NCBI GenBank assembly: GCA_020049465.1
Contig: JAIFKS010000024.1
Span: 210 to 64,209 of the forward strand
Direction of reading: 5' to 3'
DNA length: 64,000 nucleotides
From: a bacterium
Lineage (GTDB): Bacteria > Krumholzibacteriota > Krumholzibacteriia > LZORAL124-64-63
In this document: in pieces, positions 1 to 44,083 of the stretch
How the letters are laid out: each line of letters starts with the position of its first letter
Position numbering within the stretch: the stretch's first letter is position 1
Program-made: the position numbers and the translations under genes
The notes under the pieces: model-generated
The model's input: the letters and a program-made list of their open reading frames with translations, nothing else
Database searches by the model: none
Told to the model about the DNA's origin: nothing

Positions 1-1115
1 CCGTACAGGGCTTCAGTTCGCTGCTCCGCGACGGCGACGATCTGCTGGCGCTGCAGGACAACGGCCTGGGCACCATGGCCAACAGCGCCGACAGCCCGCT
101 GCGCTGGTATCGCCTGCGGCCGGACTGGGCGGCCGGCTCCGTCAAGCTGGACGGTTTCGTCGAACTGACCGACCCCGACCGCCTGCTGCCGTTCCCGCTG
201 GCCGGCGCGGAGAATCTTCGCGAAGGCCGCCGCCTGTCGGGCGCCGACCTGGACCCCGAAGCCATGGTGGCGATGGACGACGGCACGTTCTGGATCGCCG
301 AAGAGTTCGGACCGTCGCTGGTGCATGTCGACGGCAACGGCGTGGTGCTGGAGAAGCCGGCGCTGGTGTTGCTGCCGCCGTCGCTGCGCGCGTTCGGGCG
401 CGGTTCGCCGTACCTGCGCACGCCTGACCACCCGGATCTGCGCGGACTGCGCGCCGACGCGTCGCGTCGCGATCTGGCCAATCTGCCGCGCAGCGGCGGC
501 ATCGAAGGTCTGGCCCGTTCGCCCGGAGGTGACCGCCTGTACGCCGCCGTCGAGAAGGGCATGCTCGACGACACGGACGGGCAGCGTCGCCTCATTCTCG
601 AATTCGATCCCGCGCGCCACGGCTTCACCGGCCGCTGCTGGTTCTACCGCGCCACTGCGGCAAACGTGTCGATCTCGTCGCTCGACAGCGACGGCAACGG
701 CGGCCTGCTGGTGCTCGAGCGGGACCCGGGCGAAGGCCGCGCTGCCGCCATCAAGCGCATCTACCGCGTGGTGCCCGGGCAGGTCGACGATACGGGGTAC
801 CTGGCGCGCACGCTGGTCTGCGACCTGCTGTCGCTCGACGACGACCGCGACCTGACGCGCCATGAACGCGGCTCGATCGGGCTGGGCCGGCATTTCAAGC
901 TGCCGTTCGTAACCCCGGAGTGCCTGCTGGTGGTGGACGCCTCGACGCTGATCGTGGCCAACGACAACAACTACCCGTTCAGTTCCGGCCGCCGGCCCGG
1001 CGAACCGGACGATACGGAGATCGTGCGTCTGCGGCTCAAAACGCCCCTGAACGCAGCGGGAGCGGCCGCTGTGGCGACCGCCCCCGTCGAATCCGCTGCG
1101 TCGAAACCTCAGTAG
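1..1115 (+). CDS. phytase-like esterase family protein (5' end outside window)
   Basis: Frame stays open to the window edge upstream of the listed ORF 75..1115. GC3-rich. Motifs GIEGLA, LLVLERD and ANDNNYPF resemble the esterase-like-activity-of-phytase propeller family. Confidence 0.55.
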   Translation, partial: VQGFSSLLRDGDDLLALQDNGLGTMANSADSPLRWYRLRPDWAAGSVKLDGFVELTDPDRLLPFPLAGAENLREGRRLSGADLDPEAMVAMDDGTFWIAEEFGPSLVHVDGNGVVLEKPALVLLPPSLRAFGRGSPYLRTPDHPDLRGLRADASRRDLANLPRSGGIEGLARSPGGDRLYAAVEKGMLDDTDGQRRLILEFDPARHGFTGRCWFYRATAANVSISSLDSDGNGGLLVLERDPGEGRAAAIKRIYRVVPGQVDDTGYLARTLVCDLLSLDDDRDLTRHERGSIGLGRHFKLPFVTPECLLVVDASTLIVANDNNYPFSSGRRPGEPDDTEIVRLRLKTPLNAAGAAAVATAPVESAASKPQ

Positions 1116-1573
1116 GGCGCGGACACGATCTCGCCCACGTCCGGGCTCGCCTCGCTGGGCTTCTTCACCATGTCGGAGCTCCGGCCGCTCGAAGGATGTT
1201 CCGACCCGAGCAGCTGGACGTTCCAGCCCACGAACGTGTCGCCGAAGCGCGGCCCCATCACGAGAACATTGCTGCCCTCCTGGAGCACCGCGCCCTGGCC
1301 ATCCGGTCCGGTGACCACCGACTCACGGCTCATCTGCAGCTGGTAGTCGCCCACGCGCCACCCGCTCAGGCCGTCGCGCCGGAGCACGCCGGTGTGGAAC
1401 TGCATCGACGGCAGCAGGTCGAAGCGGTGCGCCTCCTTCATCTCCGGCGGCATCTCCGTCCGGTTCGGGCTCAGCCTCTTGTTGTCCGGTTTCCGGCCCG
1501 CCTGGGCCTCGGTGGTCGCCGAGACGCCCAGCACCAGGCACAGCGACAGCGTGAGTGCGAGTTTGCGTTTCAT
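1109..1573 (-). CDS. hypothetical secreted protein, last gene of the pilus minor-pilin operon
   Basis: Internal ATG at 1573 gives MKRKLALTLSLCLVLGVSATTEAQA, a signal peptide. An AGGAGG RBS lies 7 nt upstream. No recognisable domain. Confidence 0.55.
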   Translation of the reverse strand: MKRKLALTLSLCLVLGVSATTEAQAGRKPDNKRLSPNRTEMPPEMKEAHRFDLLPSMQFHTGVLRRDGLSGWRVGDYQLQMSRESVVTGPDGQGAVLQEGSNVLVMGPRFGDTFVGWNVQLLGSEHPSSGRSSDMVKKPSEASPDVGEIVSAPY

Positions 1574-10090: not shown

Positions 10091-11410
10091 TCAGTTTGAC
10101 GGGGACCTGCAGCCTCCCAGCACGAACCCTGCGATATCGTCGATGACCACGGGGGCCACCGGGCGCGGGGTGGCGTAGTCTTCCGGGGTGGCGCGGCCCT
10201 CACCGGCCCGCATCAGATGGTCCAGGTTTTCGTAGAGCTTGAGGCAGGCTTGCGGCCGCCCCTCCAGCGCCGCCTGCCAGCGCGCGAAATCCACCTTCGT
10301 CACCTGGTAGTCGCGCCCGCCCTGCAGCACCAGGATGGGGATGTCCAGCGCGGCGGCCTCGGTGGGGCCGTCGTGGGCCTCGAGGTCGGCGAAGTAGCCG
10401 CTCGGGACGCCCAGGGGGTCGCCGACCGCGGGCTCCGGCCCCCGCAACGCGGCCACGGCGGCCTTCAACTGGGCGAGGTGCGCCGCTTCTTCGGCCGTGA
10501 CCGTGTCGTCCAGTGCGACCAGGTACTCGGTCTGTTCGACCATGATCTCCGGCAGCGGCCTCGCGGCGCCCGCCATGATGATCACGCCGTCAGCCTTCGC
10601 CTCCGTCGCCAGGCGCGGCCCGACCATGCCACCCAGCGAGTGCCCCAGCACGAACACGCGCGCGGGGTCGATCTCCGCCCGGTTGCGCAGCAGCGCGACG
10701 GCCACCACCGCGTCGTCGATCGTCTCGTGCTGCACGGTCAGCGCCGCGCCGTGGGCCGTCAGCGATGGCAGGTTCGCGTAGCTGCGTTTGTCGTAGCGCA
10801 GCACGGCCACCCCGCGCGCGGCCAGCCCATGGGCGATGTCGCGGAACGGGCGGTTGCCCATGATGTTCTCGTCGCGGTCGCTCGGACCGCTGCCGTGCAC
10901 CAGCACCACGGCCGGGAAGGGTCCGTCGCCGTCGGGCAGCGACAGCGTGCCCGGCAGCGCGCTGTCCGCGGGCCCCACGGACACCTCGATCTCGCGCGGC
11001 CCCGCCGCGGCCGCCGGTTCGGGCGCGTGCGGCAGCAGCCCCAGTCCCGCCACGCGCGCGTCGGCATCGAGCACGACCTGGAAATCGATCGTCGTTAGTT
11101 CGCCCACCACCGGCACCCGGTACCGCCGGTAGACTCCGACATTGTCGTCATGCCACGCCGCGCCCACCGACTTGATCGCACCGGTCTGCGCCGTCACCGC
11201 GCCGAGCAGCTGCCCGATCGAGGCATCATTCATCGCCTCGCTCATCTGCGAAGTGCCCATCGCGCGCGCCGCCGCCCCGTCGCTCTTGACCAGAGCCTCC
11301 GAAAACGACCGCGCCACAGCCTCCGGCTCCGCCGCTCCGACTTGCGCCGGCGCAAGTCCCGCAAGCACCCCAATAATGAACGCCCCCGCGATCCCCAGTC
11401 CCATCCGCAT
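10091..11410 (-). CDS. secreted alpha/beta hydrolase
   Basis: Signal peptide MRMGLGIAGAFIIGVLAGLAPAQVGAA. Motifs VLVHGSGPSDRDE and nucleophile elbow GHSLGG. AAGGGGA RBS. Confidence 0.8.
   Translation of the reverse strand: MRMGLGIAGAFIIGVLAGLAPAQVGAAEPEAVARSFSEALVKSDGAAARAMGTSQMSEAMNDASIGQLLGAVTAQTGAIKSVGAAWHDDNVGVYRRYRVPVVGELTTIDFQVVLDADARVAGLGLLPHAPEPAAAAGPREIEVSVGPADSALPGTLSLPDGDGPFPAVVLVHGSGPSDRDENIMGNRPFRDIAHGLAARGVAVLRYDKRSYANLPSLTAHGAALTVQHETIDDAVVAVALLRNRAEIDPARVFVLGHSLGGMVGPRLATEAKADGVIIMAGAARPLPEIMVEQTEYLVALDDTVTAEEAAHLAQLKAAVAALRGPEPAVGDPLGVPSGYFADLEAHDGPTEAAALDIPILVLQGGRDYQVTKVDFARWQAALEGRPQACLKLYENLDHLMRAGEGRATPEDYATPRPVAPVVIDDIAGFVLGGCRSPSN
11340..11357. repeat. 18-bp palindrome, exact copy A, inside the hydrolase signal-peptide codons
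   Basis: ACTTGCGCCGGCGCAAGT. Confidence 0.95.
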
Positions 11411-39291: not shown

Positions 39292-40048
39292 CGGCGGCGG
39301 ACCCCGACGCGAATTCAGCCTGTCGCGCCGGGCGACCGTGCTGTTGGCGGCGCTGTTCCTGATCCTCTTGGTGGTGGCGGTCCTGCAGTTGGGCGAGGCG
39401 CTGATCGCCCGCGAACAGCGCGCCACCATCGACGAGCTGGAGCGCCAACTGGCCGAGACCCGTGACGAACTGCTGAAGTCCCGCATCGCGCAGGCCGAGC
39501 TGGAGCAGACCCGCCTGCTGCAGGAAGAACTCATGGTGATGCTGGGCGTGCCGCGCTCCGATTCGTTGAGCGCCCTGGCGGACACCCTTTGCGATGTGCC
39601 GCCGGTCGGTGTTTCTGTGGATGTCCCGCCCGCGCCGGAAGCCGCCACGGCGCCACCCTCGCGGTGGCCGGCCGCCGGCGTGATCATCCGTGAATTCACG
39701 CACGGGGACTCTTCAGCGGGAGTCGAGGAGCATCGGGGCGTGGACATTGCAGGCGAGGTTGGCGACCCCGTGGTGGCGGCGGCCGAAGGAGATGTCGACT
39801 TTGTCGGGACGGATGAGGTCCTGGGCAACTACCTCGAGATCCGCCACGGGCTCGACTACGTGACCATCTACGGGCATTGCAGCTGGGTGGGCGTGGGGCC
39901 GGGCCACCGGGTGCGCGCCGGCGAAAAAATAGCGAAGATGGGCCACTCGGGCCAGACGGCAATCACGCAGCTTCATTTTGAAGTGTGGAAGCGGGGCGAA
40001 GCGGTGGATCCGCGCAAAATTCTCGCTGGCGAACCGGCGCCCCGTTAG
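39248..40048 (+). CDS. M23 family metallopeptidase with coiled-coil N-terminus
   Basis: ATG at 39248 after AAGGAGG. Motifs HRGVDIAG and GHSG....LHFEV. Confidence 0.85.
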   Translation: MGIPAKTRVTLASADGGGPRREFSLSRRATVLLAALFLILLVVAVLQLGEALIAREQRATIDELERQLAETRDELLKSRIAQAELEQTRLLQEELMVMLGVPRSDSLSALADTLCDVPPVGVSVDVPPAPEAATAPPSRWPAAGVIIREFTHGDSSAGVEEHRGVDIAGEVGDPVVAAAEGDVDFVGTDEVLGNYLEIRHGLDYVTIYGHCSWVGVGPGHRVRAGEKIAKMGHSGQTAITQLHFEVWKRGEAVDPRKILAGEPAPR

Positions 40049-40104
40049 GGCATAGTACGCAAACCGTCCCGGCGACCACCGCCAGGGCCTCAAGGAGGAC
40101 ATCC

Positions 40105-40533
40105 ATGTTCGGGAAAGAACCGGAAAACCAGACCGTCAGCGCCGGCCAGACCTCGATCATCGCGCAGGGAAGCAAATTCGACGGCAAGATCGACGTGCGC
40201 GGCACGCTGCGGATCGAGGGCGAATTCCGCGGCACCATCGGTCTGCCGGAAAGCCTGGTCATCGGCAAGACCGGCGTGGTGCACGCCAACTGCAACGTGA
40301 AGAACGCCATCATCGGCGGCCAGCTCTTCGGCAACATCACCGCCGAGAACAAGATCGAGCTGCAGAGCGGCTCCCACGTCGAAGGCGACATCAAGACCAA
40401 GCGTCTGGTCATCGACGAGGGCGTGTTCTTCGAGGGCAACTGCTCGATGGGCGATGGCCAGAAGAAGGCCCCGGGCGCGGGCGCGCAGACGACCCCCGCC
40501 GCGGCCGTGCCGGCGGAGCCGCTGCGCAAGTAG
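40105..40533 (+). CDS. bactofilin (polymer-forming cytoskeletal protein)
   Basis: ATG after AAGGAGG. Repetitive beta-helix pattern IIAQGSKFDGKIDVRGTLRIEGEFRGTI...VKNAIIGGQLFGNITAENKIELQSGSHVEGDIKTKRLVIDEGVFFEG. Confidence 0.9.
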   Translation: MFGKEPENQTVSAGQTSIIAQGSKFDGKIDVRGTLRIEGEFRGTIGLPESLVIGKTGVVHANCNVKNAIIGGQLFGNITAENKIELQSGSHVEGDIKTKRLVIDEGVFFEGNCSMGDGQKKAPGAGAQTTPAAAVPAEPLRK

Positions 40534-40548
40534 TGGCGAAACCGGGAT

Positions 40549-40566
40549 CGTTGCGCCGGCGCAAGT
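40549..40566. repeat. 18-bp palindrome family, copy G (16/18), 16 nt after the bactofilin stop
   Basis: CGTTGCGCCGGCGCAAGT. Confidence 0.8.
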
Positions 40567-40919
40567 GGGCGCCGCGGTGCGCAGCGGATCGGAATGGGAG
40601 CACCCCGGCTGGATGGCTGGGGTGCTCTTTCGTTTGCTGCGGGTGTCGGCCGACTGGAGCGTTGCCGCCAGTGGCGATTCTGACCTATGCTCGAGGGCCA
40701 TCGCGTGGAGGCGTGTCTTGCGTGGACGGGTCGCGATCGTTGCCGTTGTCTTCGCCGGGGCGCTGGGCGTGTGTGTCGGTTCGGCGCTGGGCAGCGTCAG
40801 CCTCATGAGACACGAAGAGAGAATGGAGCGCGTGCTTGTCTCCTACGAACCGATCAGGTAGGAAAGGTGGGCGGTTCGCCGCCCAGGCCGACCCGAGAAA
40901 CCAGGACAGGTGATTCCCC

Positions 40920-41270
40920 ATGACCAGCAGCGGCACGCGCATCCTCGAACGCGACGGCCACTTCATGAACATCGCCGATGCGTCCGACGGCAAACTCATC
41001 CTGCTGATCACGACCACCGAGGCGGGCATTGCCGACGGCTTCACCATCGGGCTGAACCCGGCGTCGCTCGCCGACCTGCGGATGGCAGCACGCACGGTCA
41101 CCTTCACCTGGACGAACCGAGACGGTTCGCTCCGCATCGAAGGCCACGAAACGGGCTGGACGCTGCAGTTCGCGATGACCGCACCGCCGTTCTCGCGCGC
41201 CACCGTGACGCTGACCGTGGCCGAGACGGCGCGGTTCCGGGTGGAGGTCCTCGGCGGGTCGGTGCATTGA
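40920..41270 (+). CDS. hypothetical protein
   Basis: GC3-rich 116-aa ORF with balanced composition. The overlapping antisense ORF is R/S/P-rich. No domain recognised. Confidence 0.5.
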   Translation: MTSSGTRILERDGHFMNIADASDGKLILLITTTEAGIADGFTIGLNPASLADLRMAARTVTFTWTNRDGSLRIEGHETGWTLQFAMTAPPFSRATVTLTVAETARFRVEVLGGSVH

Positions 41271-41289
41271 GCGCGCGGCGCACGCCGGG

Positions 41290-41307
41290 ACTTGCGCCGG
41301 CGCAAGT
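41290..41307. repeat. 18-bp palindrome, exact copy H
   Basis: ACTTGCGCCGGCGCAAGT, 20 nt after the stop of ORF 40920-41270. Confidence 0.95.
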
Positions 41308-41315
41308 CGCTGGTT

Positions 41316-41363
41316 GATCAAGTCGTGGGCTGAACAAGTCGGCGACCGATCAAATCGTCGGCT
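41316..41363. repeat. 3 x 16-bp imperfect tandem repeat (iteron-like)
   Basis: Units GATCAAGTCGTGGGCT, GAACAAGTCGGCGACC and GATCAAATCGTCGGCT. Confidence 0.55.
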
Positions 41364-41448
41364 AGACCGGGCGCGGGAATTGCGCTGTGCACAGGTATGC
41401 GAGTCGCGCTGAGCCCCAAGCTGGTTGAAGCCATTCGGCGATTCTGGC

Positions 41449-41477
41449 TTGACTGCAAGCCCGTTCTTGCCGACAAT
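41449..41477 (+). promoter_or_regulatory. candidate sigma-70 promoter TTGACT-17-GACAAT
   Basis: 5/6 match at -35, 17-nt spacer, 4/6 match at -10. Lies upstream of the structured leader. Confidence 0.35.
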
Positions 41478-41483
41478 CTTTGT

Positions 41484-41552
41484 CAGTCAGCCCCAGTTCG
41501 GCTTTCTGAGCCGACTGGCCCCCTCCGGGTTGCGACCCGGAGGGTTTCTTTT
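41484..41552 (+). ncRNA. candidate short structured transcript or leader ending in an intrinsic terminator
   Basis: Hairpin 41493-41518 (10 bp, one bulge) followed by the terminator hairpin. About 70 nt from the predicted TSS to the end of the T-tract. Confidence 0.35.
41521..41552 (+). terminator. intrinsic terminator 10 nt upstream of the NYN gene ATG
   Basis: CCCTCCGGG-TTGCGA-CCCGGAGGG followed by TTTCTTTT. Confidence 0.65.
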
Positions 41553-41562
41553 GGTAACAACA

Positions 41563-42201
41563 ATGAATAGAACCATTTTCCTGGTTGATGGCTTCAATCT
41601 CTATCACTCACTGCGCGCCGCCTCAGAGGATCTGAACGGGGTCACGACCAAATGGTTGGACCTCGCGGGCCTGCTGCGGTCATACCTTCCGAGTATCGGT
41701 GGCGGTGCCAAGGTGGAAAGAATCTACTACTTCTCGGCACTTGCCACACATCTGGAGCAGCGACAACCGGGCGTTACGGTGCGCCATCGCGCCTATCTCG
41801 ATTGTCTTCAGTCGACGGGCATCGTTCCTGTCATGGGGCGCTTCAAGTCCAAGCAGGTCCACTGCAGGACATGCCGACGTCAGAGTGAGCACTTCGAAGA
41901 AAAAGAAACCGACGTCGCCATCTCAACAAAGCTACTCGAGGTGCTTCATCTCAATGCAGCCGACACGGTGGTGCTCGTCACTGGTGACACCGATCTGGCG
42001 CCCGCCGTTCGTACCGCGCGGACGCTGTTCCCAACGAAGCGCATTTGGTTCATCTTCCCGTATAGGCGAAAGAACAAAGAGTTGGCGCAAATCGCGGACG
42101 GCAACTGCTACATTCGAAAAGAACGCTACGCGCAGCACCAGTTCCCGCCGGCCGTGACCCTGGCAACCGGACGGGCCGTAGCGAAGCCGGCCACATGGTA
42201 G
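41563..42201 (+). CDS. NYN (LabA/PIN-like) domain protein, predicted RNase
   Basis: Starts MNRTIFLVDGFNLYHSL. Motifs EKETDVAIS and VLVTGDTDLAPAV. CxxC-containing insert. Clearly lower GC than the surroundings. Confidence 0.8.
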   Translation: MNRTIFLVDGFNLYHSLRAASEDLNGVTTKWLDLAGLLRSYLPSIGGGAKVERIYYFSALATHLEQRQPGVTVRHRAYLDCLQSTGIVPVMGRFKSKQVHCRTCRRQSEHFEEKETDVAISTKLLEVLHLNAADTVVLVTGDTDLAPAVRTARTLFPTKRIWFIFPYRRKNKELAQIADGNCYIRKERYAQHQFPPAVTLATGRAVAKPATW

Positions 42202-42340
42202 ATCGGACAGAAACGCCCGGCCAAAGTTCGCCACAGACGATCGTCCCACCGACTTGAAAAACCATGACCGATGATTGCCCACGAACCCCAATTCGAGCGT
42301 CGCCGACGGTTTCACCATTGGGCCAAAGGCGCAAGCCGGG

Positions 42341-42358
42341 ACTTGCGCCGGCGCAAGT
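42341..42358. repeat. 18-bp palindrome, exact copy I
   Basis: ACTTGCGCCGGCGCAAGT, between the NYN and ARH genes. Confidence 0.95.
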
Positions 42359-42405
42359 CCTGGGCTGATACTGACCGCGAAGCCATCCCCCAACGGGAGC
42401 GCCCC

Positions 42406-43353
42406 ATGACCGACCAACCCGAAGCCCAACGATCCCGCGCCCAAGGCGCGCTCCTCGGCCAACTGGCCGGCGACGCCCTCGGCTCCCTGGTCGAGTTCCA
42501 GTCCCCCGAAACCATCCGCCGCCAATACCCCGACGGGGTCCGCCTCCTTGCCGATGGCGGGTACTGGGACACCATCGCCGGCCAGCCCACCGACGACAGC
42601 GAGATGGCGCTGGCGTTGGCGCGCTCCATCGTCGAGCACGGCAAGTACATTCCCGACGCCGCGCGGCGCGCCTACGTCGACTGGTACCATTCGATGCCCT
42701 TCGACTGCGGCACCACCATCTCCAACGCGCTCAACGGCCGCCCCAATCCACAGAGCCAGGCCAACGGCGCGTTGATGCGCGTCAGCCCGCTCGGCATTTT
42801 CGGCGCGCGTCACGAGCTGACGCAGGTCGCGCGCTGGGCGCGGCAGGACGCGGCGCTCACGCATCCCCACCCAATCTGCCAGGACGCCAACGCGCTGTTC
42901 GCGATGGCGATCGCCCACGCGATCGGGACCGGCTGCCCGGGCCGCGACCTCTACGACGCGATCATGGACTGGGCCGCGCATTTGAACGTGGCCCCGGCGC
43001 TGCTCGAAGCGATCGAAGGTGCCGCCGCGAATCCGCCGCGCGATTACCTCCACCAGCAGGGCTGGGTGCTCATCGCCCTGCGCAACGCGTTGTGGCAACT
43101 GCTCCATGCGCCCAGCCTCGAAGCCGGCGTCATCGACACGGTCATGCGCGGTGGCGACACCGACACGAACGCGGCCATCGCCGGCGCATTGCTGGGCGCG
43201 GTGCACGGGCGCGAGGCCGTCCCGCGGCAGTGGGTTGAAACGCTGGCGAACTGCCGACCGGAAAAGGGGCGGACCGGCGTCAAACACGCACGGCCAGAAA
43301 TCTACTGGCCGGTCGATGCGGAGGAGCTTGCGCTGCGGTTGTACGACGCGTGA
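42406..43353 (+). CDS. ADP-ribosylglycohydrolase family protein
   Basis: Motifs GALLGQLAGDALGSLVEF, TDDSEMALALA and GGDTDTNAAIAGALLGA. Confidence 0.88.
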   Translation: MTDQPEAQRSRAQGALLGQLAGDALGSLVEFQSPETIRRQYPDGVRLLADGGYWDTIAGQPTDDSEMALALARSIVEHGKYIPDAARRAYVDWYHSMPFDCGTTISNALNGRPNPQSQANGALMRVSPLGIFGARHELTQVARWARQDAALTHPHPICQDANALFAMAIAHAIGTGCPGRDLYDAIMDWAAHLNVAPALLEAIEGAAANPPRDYLHQQGWVLIALRNALWQLLHAPSLEAGVIDTVMRGGDTDTNAAIAGALLGAVHGREAVPRQWVETLANCRPEKGRTGVKHARPEIYWPVDAEELALRLYDA

Positions 43354-43431
43354 GCAAGTGGCTTGACGCCGTGAACGGGCGAGGGCACGCTCACCGCCGA
43401 GCCCGCGCCCCGACCTTTCCGCAACGAGAGG

Positions 43432-43848
43432 ATGCCGACCGTGTGGAAAAACGCCGTGATGGCCGCTCTGGCCTGCGTGATGCTGTCCGCCTGCGCCGCT
43501 ACGCGCCCGGCTCTCGAAGGCGCCTGGGAATGTGTGGACCCGGCGCCGGGGCTGGGGGAAGTCGCCGCGGTGAAGGTGCTCTCCGACGGACACTTCGCTT
43601 TCGGGCGCCCGTCGCCGGCCGGCGACACCGTCTTCGCCGGAGGCGGCACCTACGTTTATCAGGACGGGACCTATACCGAAACCGTGGCCTGGCACTGGGC
43701 TCCGAAGCTGGTGGGCCAGACCATTGTCTTCGACTGCTCCATGAAGGACGGCCTGTGGTACCACCGGGCGACGTTCGAAGCCGGCGGCGAGCGGTTCGAG
43801 ATCAATGAGATCTGGCGGCGGGTTTCGGTACCGAAGCCGGGATCCTGA
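43432..43848 (+). CDS. hypothetical lipoprotein
   Basis: Lipobox VMLSAC. GC3-rich. Possibly lipocalin-like. Confidence 0.6.
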   Translation: MPTVWKNAVMAALACVMLSACAATRPALEGAWECVDPAPGLGEVAAVKVLSDGHFAFGRPSPAGDTVFAGGGTYVYQDGTYTETVAWHWAPKLVGQTIVFDCSMKDGLWYHRATFEAGGERFEINEIWRRVSVPKPGS

Positions 43849-43885
43849 AGCCCGTCTCGCACCCCAAAAATCACAACTTCGTGAT

Positions 43886-43903
43886 AGTTGCGCCGGCACA
43901 AGT
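43886..43903. repeat. 18-bp palindrome family, copy J (16/18)
   Basis: AGTTGCGCCGGCACAAGT, 38 nt after the lipoprotein stop. Confidence 0.75.
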
Positions 43904-44083
43904 GGCGTCCCGCTTTCGGCGCGGGCCTTTGCGCCTCAATGCCCGCGTCGGAGCAACTTCCCACCCCCCACCCGGCCTAATTAGATTGTGCGGACACCGT
44001 ACAAAGTGTAAGATAGTCATGCCGAAGCCCGCTCAACCTTGCGTCCCAACGTCGGCAGGTCCCCGAAGCAAAGGACTCTTCTC

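Follow-up and report, generated by a model that had tools for sequence, protein, structure and literature searches.

Type III toxin–antitoxin systems of the ToxIN, CptIN and TenpIN families (Fineran 2009, Blower 2012; PMC3401426, PMC5086642) share an order of parts in which one promoter is followed by a non-coding RNA, a Rho-independent terminator and a co-oriented endoribonuclease gene, and a further report (PMC10511110) describes AvcID as a type III system acting in phage defence. The toxin of the latter, AvcD, is a dCMP/dCTP deaminase and not a ribonuclease (RNase), and its RNA and layout are unrelated to those considered here. AvcI, its antitoxin, consists of one small RNA and is not known to carry a long array of repeats. 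To our knowledge, type III systems are known from very few protein families, being either ToxN-like or unrelated single examples. In addition, a MARF1-like NYN RNase, HEC-09, was defined inside Hma (helicase-methylase-ATPase) systems, with no RNA partner mentioned (Payne et al., bioRxiv 10.1101/2024.01.29.577857). In the window analysed here, that is, the whole stretch of 64,000 nucleotides (nt) from contig JAIFKS010000024.1 of a Krumholzibacteriota bacterium, the type III order of elements was found in front of an NYN-domain RNase gene located at 41563..42201 on the forward strand. The leader of this gene is a conserved, covarying structured RNA that was previously uncatalogued, and not an ordinary terminator. 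Together, a ~65-nt RNA and the NYN gene form a horizontally mobile two-part module spanning 41426-42201, with a subclade-specific block at 41368-41385. That the two parts work as a type III-like toxin–antitoxin or defence module, with the NYN protein as its toxin, is a proposal drawn from sequence comparison to which we give an even chance.

The leader elements listed in a preliminary description of this DNA were re-found at identical coordinates, base for base. The leader is headed by a sigma70-type promoter (41449..41477, forward strand, as for all leader elements below), composed of the −35 element TTGACT (41449-41454), a 17-nt spacer and the −10 element GACAAT (41472-41477), and this proposed promoter proved to be the only sigma70-like match in the 4 kb between 40000 and 44000, where 0.2 were expected. 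Transcription is predicted to start downstream of the −10 element, at ~41484-41485, and the predicted 5′ end of the RNA carries an 8-nt, pyrimidine-rich single-stranded tag, AGUCAGCC (41485..41492), whose family consensus is UCAUCC. The tag is followed by the 10-bp hairpin noted earlier, here called P1 (41493..41518), with a bulged U41498, a UUCUG loop and a ΔG of −14.9 kcal/mol, then by a linker of two C residues and by hairpin P2 (41521..41544), a perfect G+C-rich 10-bp stem with a UGCG tetraloop at 41531-41534 and a ΔG of −20.2 kcal/mol. P2 is the stem of an intrinsic terminator, and it is completed by the U-tract UUUCUUUU (41545..41552), identified by a terminator scan. Finally, a 10-nt spacer, GGUAACAACA (41553..41562), in which there is no Shine-Dalgarno (SD) sequence, leads to the ATG of the NYN gene. 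Thus, the strong terminator previously placed at 41521-41552, with a start codon lacking an SD sequence 10 nt further on, was recovered as P2 and its U-tract.

The terminator scan of 40000-44000 called 41521-41544, then TTTCTTTT, and terminator-like sites were about as numerous in the window as in shuffled sequences. The fold of the 88-nt window leader had a z-score of −3.5 compared to shuffles. The nearest gene upstream ends 250 nt before the element, and the G+C content over 41300-42350 (0.56-0.59) was lower than that of both flanks (0.65-0.71), as had been remarked. No AUG or GUG was seen on reading the predicted RNA (~41485-41562), and a leader peptide was rejected, the 57-aa open reading frame (ORF) at 41397-41570 beginning 5′ of the promoter and having no Pfam match. 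A tRNA- or tmRNA-like reading was also rejected: P2 (GGGUUGCGAYCC) recalls a T-arm, but its loop is a YNCG tetraloop and not a T-loop, and ARAGORN found no tRNA or tmRNA. Moreover, a ~23-nt direct repeat (41434-41456 and 41497-41518), noted earlier, was set aside as weak, since it was equalled in 14 out of 500 shuffles and is absent from homologues.

For ~80 metagenomic homologues (42-67% protein identity), the 130 nt located 5′ of the gene were inspected, showing a near-universal layout made up of a promoter, (A/U)UCAUCC, a first hairpin that varies in sequence, CC, a CCYYCGGGU-UGCG/UACG-AYCCGRRGG hairpin, a U-tract and the start codon. A total of 68 distinct metagenomic leaders were aligned (alignment A1), and the structure given by RNAalifold contained both P1 and P2. 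It should be noted that the pairing of P2 in A1 was partly selected, as these 68 sequences were chosen with a hairpin finder, which did not select for P1. Compensatory changes were detected in 14 out of 16 RNAalifold pairs, and 96% of the cells of A1 were paired (80% in column shuffles). The covariation score reached 0.545, compared to 0.23 in shuffles (0 out of 500 attained it) and to 0.08-0.14 when the partners were slid by 1-3 columns. For P1, whose sequence varies between loci, all 7 modelled pairs showed changes on both sides, with 91% of cells paired, and 7-8 of the 9 pairs of P2 covaried. The tag was present with column frequencies of T61, C67, A61, T49, C68 and C53 (n = 68), the P2 loop was YNCG in 66 leaders, the U-A closing pair appeared in 56 of them, and the 8 nt following P2 had a median of 6 U.

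A covariance model, R1, was built from A1 and applied to an independent test set of 80 loci from one-genome-per-species contigs, chosen by protein similarity alone. R1 matched 79 of these loci, once each, on the strand of the gene and at most a few tens of nucleotides away from where NYN starts, the sole negative locus having only 9 nt of upstream DNA. No further matches were found in the 711 kb of the 80 genome loci, and no free-standing copies were seen in ~775 kb of cellular flanks; across ~1.5 Mb, the only matches away from NYN genes were two gene-less copies on phage contigs. The covariation score in the alignment of this independent set (A2) was 0.595 (vs. 0.231). In the window, the leader (41478..41552) was the sole full-length R1 match (70.8 bits, E = 1.6e−16). 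Represented in this test set are, among others, Eisenbacteria, Gammaproteobacteria, Acidobacteria, Bacteroidota, Planctomycetes, Chloroflexi, Gemmatimonadota, Chlorobi, Thermotogae, Verrucomicrobia, Actinobacteria, Spirochaetes and Elusimicrobia. Furthermore, leader identity among the closest relatives was 94-97%, as opposed to 50-58% identity at the third codon positions of the gene. The suggestion that the arrangement of structured RNA, terminator and endoribonuclease gene is functional thus gained support, the leader being kept in 68 metagenomic leaders and 79 of 80 genome loci with both helices covarying; the retention of the leader by NYN homologues, proposed as the decisive check, was observed in essentially every locus with upstream DNA.

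The leader matched no Rfam family. A scan of the whole window at Rfam 15 gathering scores yielded 0 matches, and the best sub-threshold match in an E-value scan of the leader was ctRNA_pGA1 (17.4 bits vs. a cut-off of 45 bits), involving the terminator part only. In line with the earlier remark that NYN toxins with RNA antitoxins are not known to have been described, no description of such a pair, nor of any RNA partner for NYN genes, was found in full-text literature searches.

A sigma70-like promoter, with a −10 element ending mostly 6-12 nt before the UCAUCC tag, was found in 110 out of 137 homologous loci, compared to 5% at random anchors, and this conserved spacing identifies the tag as the likely 5′ end of the RNA. 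Assembled metatranscriptomes were also informative for two loci. In the single-unit locus L094 (Acidobacteria), the first base of a soil metatranscriptome contig coincides exactly with that of the motif, 7-8 nt downstream of the −10 element TATCTT, and the contig continues past the terminator for 380 nt into NYN. In the locus L202, which carries several units of the RNA, a bioreactor metatranscriptome contig starts inside unit 1, ~11 nt after the predicted start, and spans the array, the terminator and most of NYN, its coverage stopping ~50 nt after the stop codon; no transcript upstream of this contig was found in 4 runs. Since both contigs begin at the element and enter NYN, RNA and gene share one promoter and read-through of the terminator occurs. 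As a separate observation, soil metatranscriptome contigs stack at a depth of 10-100 at positions 6263-6300 of L094, ~130 nt downstream of NYN, and extend into unrelated sequence; ARAGORN found no tRNA there.

P2 contributes 17.6 kcal/mol, of which a median of 15.5 was lost when its 3′ arm was barred from pairing in 140 leaders. No alternative pairing compensates for the blocked arm, which argues against any competing antiterminator. An antiterminator switch was therefore ruled out energetically and, in A1, the 5′ CCCC tag did not covary with the P2 arm. The read-through attenuator earlier offered as an alternative is thus unlikely in its classical antiterminator version, having no competing pairing.

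The NYN gene encodes a 212-aa protein (ATG to TAG) that matches Pfam NYN (PF01936) over residues 7-178 with 44 bits, above the gathering cut-off of 24.2 (E = 4.2e−11), the only other Pfam match at E ≤ 0.1 being a sub-threshold TrkA_N (E = 0.067). The PADLOC profile of HEC-09 (PDLC04163) was matched with E = 2.5e−46, residues 1-212 aligning to positions 1-202 of 203. The active site is intact, and its acidic residues D9, E112-E115, D117, D142 and D144 are invariant in 34 homologues (56-85% identity). An AlphaFold (AF2) model from the alignment of these homologues had a pLDDT of 95.1 and showed an NYN/PIN-like fold, for which the best match in the Protein Data Bank (PDB) was 2qip (VPA0982, a protein of unknown function; E = 2.9e−8); the sequence profile of the window family matched 2qip only weakly (E = 0.09). 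LabA-like NYN proteins (PDB 2qip VPA0982; TIGR00288) and the CRISPR-associated NYN protein of B. fragilis have their catalytic fold and acidic residues in common with the window protein, but the sequence relation is remote (E ~0.01-0.1) and those proteins have no reported upstream RNA partner. The B. fragilis protein is a Mn2+-dependent, non-specific single-stranded RNase in vitro (bioRxiv 10.1101/2024.04.08.588522).

With respect to the start codon, the gene caller had chosen a TTG 4 codons upstream, giving a 216-aa product (P0001), but the ATG at 41563 is the likely start because most homologues are 212 aa long and begin MNR..FLVDGFN. An SD-like sequence was absent from its usual place in 83 of 144 NYN loci, and the spacer from U-tract to start had a median of 12 nt. 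Apart from this, ~23 of the 144 NYN genes (L065, L075-L083 and others) had no ATG, GTG or TTG at the conserved N-terminus, their apparent starts being ATC, ATA or ATT; one example is GGGGGTCCATCGTCAACCGC, with an SD-like G-run immediately upstream.

The window protein resembles HEC-09 in being a single-domain NYN/MARF1-like RNase with three conserved acidic residues, and differs in that its gene does not lie within an Hma system and that the neighbours vary among the homologous loci sampled. The HEC-09 tested by Payne et al., from P. amygdali, is 62% identical to the NYN protein of a Thermus oshimai plasmid, which in turn is 31.6% identical to the window protein and has no R1 match upstream of its gene. 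The tested P. amygdali locus had no DNA match in plasmids.

The boundaries of the module were defined by comparison with its closest relatives. The core of the cassette (promoter, leader RNA and NYN ORF; 41426..42201, forward strand) was delimited by blastn against L001, L086, L087 and L088, at ~80% nucleotide identity, with alignments starting at 41426-41430 and ending at 42201-42202, except for the L088 locus, cut short at 42162. No similarity to these four contigs was found by blastn in the flanks beyond the cassette. In addition, a MAFFT alignment of upstream regions revealed a block, CCGGGCGCGGGAATTGCG (41368..41385, forward strand), located 64 nt 5′ of the −35 element, and its pattern was found, among 131 upstream regions, only in the window, L001, L086, L087 and L088. 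This block could be an operator, or it could mark where the cassette really begins on the left. As similarity to the closest relatives is confined to the cassette (41426-42202 plus 41368-41385) and the flanks are unrelated, its horizontal transfer as a unit is supported, in agreement with the probable horizontal acquisition proposed before.

In other loci, the NYN gene appeared as a solitary gene amid varying neighbours, including toxin–antitoxin pairs, NERD/UvrD, HNH and SNF2 genes, integrases and transposases. Distant relatives (28-40% identity) were present on 353 plasmids, and relatives were found on 49 IMG/VR contigs; the enterobacterial relative L145 had no match in E. coli genomes or plasmids. 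Plasmids of ~4 kb carrying NYN were also noted, two being among the matches listed (E. coli and P. asiatica).

Regarding viral contigs, R1 matches were found upstream of NYN genes down to ~33-40% protein identity. Three consecutive units of the RNA appeared in each of L202/L203, L200, L229 and L234, which belong to sister clades at 30-40% protein identity. Each array unit comprises a UCAUCC-like tag, P1, CC and P2, the tag recurring at the unit junctions within arrays, and a U-tract, with NYN behind it, follows the last unit alone. UCAUCC, UCAGCC and UCAACC occur as variants of the tag. The arrangement is no different in cultured Betaproteobacteria, of which Sideroxydans sp. CL21 (LR699166.1, near 153.5 kb) and Nitrosomonas sp. 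PY1 each have three units, a Vogesella strain has at least four, and strain GR16-43 has a single one. In an alignment of 14 array units, 90.5% of cells were paired (vs. 69%) and the covariation score was 0.645 (vs. 0.205); moreover, when 39 kb were searched with R1 with its filters off, the 7 best matches all fell within arrays. TRF called no repeats in these arrays, as their units differ in the sequence of P1. The earlier statement that no long tandem array is present thus holds for the window, but not for sister clades, which carry from three to at least four units. Repeated units without terminators, for which an attenuator has no need, look like a stoichiometric RNA partner processed from a precursor.

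Plasmid-borne relatives had no R1 match, yet hairpins lay directly 5′ of NYN in five of the six plasmid loci read. Hairpin(s) and a U-tract terminator were found in the Klebsiella, Pseudomonas and E. coli plasmid leaders, those of Klebsiella and Pseudomonas starting with UCAACCCC. A weak R1 match occurred at the right place in the Methylobacterium plasmid, and the Thermus plasmid leader had hairpins and no U-tract; the hairpin/terminator layout was not seen in the sixth locus, that of the Streptomyces plasmid. A side observation concerns positions 2850-2997 of L167 and L168 (Klebsiella and Pseudomonas plasmids), where a TTGAC-17-TAGTAT promoter precedes an RNA starting with ACUCAACCCC, which pairs with a downstream GGGGUG, and a strong terminator. 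These two loci belong to a distant NYN clade, found on >200 Klebsiella plasmids, whose leader is different but follows the same logic.

Orphan copies of the motif were sought in IMG/VR with two pattern scans and then with R1, and two good R1 copies with no NYN gene in the locus were found, both on phage contigs. The first (L185, 9215-9280, forward strand; 50.8 bits) lies on a 70-kb Mu-like contig with Mu Gam, ThsB-TIR-like and HEPN-like genes, and is bracketed by the inverted repeat GTGGCTTCAGGCC / GGCCTGAAGCCAC. The second (L259, 1480-1551, reverse strand; 60 bits) is preceded by a promoter of its own, TTGACA-17-TATAGT, and its contig also carries the gene of a terminase large subunit. The U-tracts of both copies are poor. 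Two gene-less phage copies of this kind would look like what RNA mimicry of an antitoxin is expected to produce, and they may act as RNA decoys. Independently, L259 shows at ~880-1340 (reverse strand), after the orphan motif, a second terminator-like hairpin and then CRISPR-like 37-nt repeats, GTCGCAYTCTCCSTACMAGCGATTCGGARGCTGCAAC, which adjoin a TnpB/Cas12f-like ORF at 29-748 (forward strand).

Taking these results together with the described type III systems, the likeness extends beyond the shared order of promoter, RNA, terminator and co-oriented endoribonuclease gene. An excess of RNA is expected in both through termination, NYN relatives carry from three to at least four tandem units before the terminator, and NYN modules are solitary and mobile, appearing on plasmids, in prophages and in defence or toxin–antitoxin islands. 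The differences are that the protein has an NYN (PIN-like) fold in place of a ToxN/AbiQ-like one, that in the window and in most NYN members one unit alone lies between the transcription start and the terminator, and that the units of NYN arrays are ~50-nt two-hairpin elements with a divergent P1, whereas those of type III systems are near-identical 34-36-nt repeats forming pseudoknots. The tandem direct repeats of type III antitoxins are lacking in the window, and the NYN protein belongs to none of the toxin families ToxN/AbiQ, CptN and TenpN. On present evidence, therefore, the module would work like a type III system, to which it comes closest in layout, but it is no member of ToxIN, CptIN or TenpIN.

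According to the mechanism that we propose, most transcripts would end at the terminator, producing a large excess of the small RNA, and the few read-through mRNAs would be poorly translated, because the gene has no SD sequence and its start codon lies 10 nt after a −20 kcal/mol hairpin. The RNA would bind the NYN protein and hold it inactive as a type III-like antitoxin, the units of arrays being separated by cleavage at the UCAUCC tag or close to it, either by a host RNase or by NYN. If the module were transcribed less, because a phage shut transcription off or because the element was lost, the RNA would decay, and the freed NYN would degrade cellular or phage RNA, leading to growth arrest or abortive infection. 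The wider proposal, in which these loci would form a new and widespread type III-like toxin–antitoxin or abortive-infection family, with an NYN RNase toxin, a two-hairpin RNA antitoxin of ~55-65 nt in single units or in arrays of three to at least four, and decoy copies in some phages, is held slightly below an even chance.

Several observations weigh against these proposals. The NYN/PIN-like fold is unrelated to those of ToxN, CptN and TenpN, and the RNA always lies in cis to NYN. The leader of the window is a single unit and not an array, and the units of the arrays are too diverged for TRF, unlike the near-identical ToxI repeats; however, the objection raised by the missing array is softened by the tandem units of the same RNA carried by sister clades. 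The transcript evidence consists of assembled contigs, without depth profiles or small-RNA capture, and is hence mute on the amount of short RNA. The two orphan phage copies could be remnants of cassettes. Furthermore, the P. amygdali HEC-09 did not protect E. coli from the phages tested (Payne et al., bioRxiv 10.1101/2024.01.29.577857), although this negative result concerns a distant clade, as the P. amygdali protein groups with the R1-negative NYN of Thermus oshimai.

The alternative that survives best is that the RNA is a purely cis-acting leader, serving as a constitutive attenuator that keeps a potentially harmful RNase very low and perhaps also as a feedback site at which NYN binds or cleaves its own 5′ untranslated region (UTR), with no antitoxin acting in trans. 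We regard this as possible and rather doubtful. RNase E, RNase III and PNPase autoregulate through their own leaders, and the rne, rnc and pnp leaders and intrinsic-terminator attenuators likewise place a structured 5′ UTR before the coding sequence, an RNase gene in the case of the former, and use a terminator to limit expression in the case of the latter. The position of the RNA, always directly upstream of NYN on the same strand, behind the same promoter and co-transcribed with it, agrees with such a role, as do the strong terminator in the 5′ UTR, the start codon near a stable hairpin and without an SD sequence, and the lack of any free-standing copy in the cellular flanks searched. However, the loci differ from those leaders and attenuators in having no antiterminator pairing, tandem units in relatives, a cassette that crosses phyla and no Rfam match. 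Simple attenuation leaves unexplained why P1 and the 5′ tag are kept so strictly in different phyla, and neither the internal array units without U-tracts nor the gene-less copies on phage contigs, one of them with its own promoter, are accounted for. It should also be considered that this explanation overlaps with the toxin–antitoxin model, since autoregulation too needs a specific interaction between the RNA and NYN.

A quite improbable alternative is that the RNA assists NYN, as its scaffold, cofactor or specificity subunit, and forms an active ribonucleoprotein (RNP) with it, without inhibition. The obligate linkage of RNA and gene, and the form of the RNA tracking the protein clade, would be seen in any RNP, and arrays would increase the dose of RNA. 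Nevertheless, the sole single-stranded part is the short invariant tag, the variable part, P1, being self-paired and thus leaving no guide-like single strand; NYN domains of another family are active alone in vitro; and the expression logic, with abundant RNA, scarce protein and no SD sequence, suits restraint better than activation. Lastly, the view of the leader as ordinary sequence, in which the terminator of an upstream transcript and a chance promoter precede an independently expressed NYN gene, could appeal to terminators being common between genes and to terminator-like sites being at shuffle level in the window, but has already been refuted by covariation, locus linkage and cassette-limited similarity, given that the upstream gene ends well before the element, which travels with NYN and not with that gene, that transcripts start at the element, and that it covaries in 68 metagenomic and 79 genome loci of unrelated contexts.

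If the toxin–antitoxin proposal is true, an NYN family spread over many phyla, and found on hundreds of plasmids and in prophages, would broaden the type III class considerably, would give a function to many proteins annotated as 'NYN/LabA/DUF88 domain-containing', and would supply the catalogues with a new family of structured RNAs. Moreover, if members carry a promoter-proximal terminator and a putative antitoxin within the 'native promoter region' that is cloned, this would be a possible reason for the null phenotype of HEC-09 and would call for a different assay design. The two orphan phage RNA copies, if functional, would be the second natural case of antitoxin RNA mimicry.

With regard to the surroundings of the cassette, the neighbours of NYN in the window are a 116-aa ORF without a Pfam match, upstream, and an ADP-ribosylglycohydrolase gene, downstream (42406-43353, forward strand; Pfam E = 5e−65), which is DraG/Tri1-like by NCBIfam, below cut-offs, and is not conserved beside NYN in other loci. 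A REP-like perfect palindrome of 20 nt, GACTTGCGCCGGCGCAAGTC, was present in 9 copies in the 64 kb, compared to 0.01 expected (at 11339, 13075, 32453, 33261, 41289, 42340, 48317, 59358 and 59523). Two of them, at 41289-41308 and 42340-42359, bracket the cassette; the flanking palindromes reported before do therefore exist, but they belong to a host REP-like family of 9 copies and are not the ends of the cassette. In the related contig L001, a copy of the palindrome with one mismatch, GACTTGCGCCGACGCAAGTC, was observed after the NYN gene. A 16-nt tandem repeat (41303-41341; consensus CAAGTCGCGGGCTGAA) begins within the right arm of the palindrome copy at 41289-41308. This repeat, noted earlier as a 16-bp array of three copies, has 2.4 copies and is not part of the element, as it lies 5′ of the stretch detectably common to the closest relatives (41368-42201). 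Finally, the sequence at 42280-42369, just 3′ of NYN, is a degenerate copy (77-81%) of two pieces of the upstream 116-aa ORF, namely an internal piece (41009-41052) and its 3′ end with the palindrome (41265-41318), and may be either a decayed paralogue or a scar, from duplication or insertion, that the cassette left behind.

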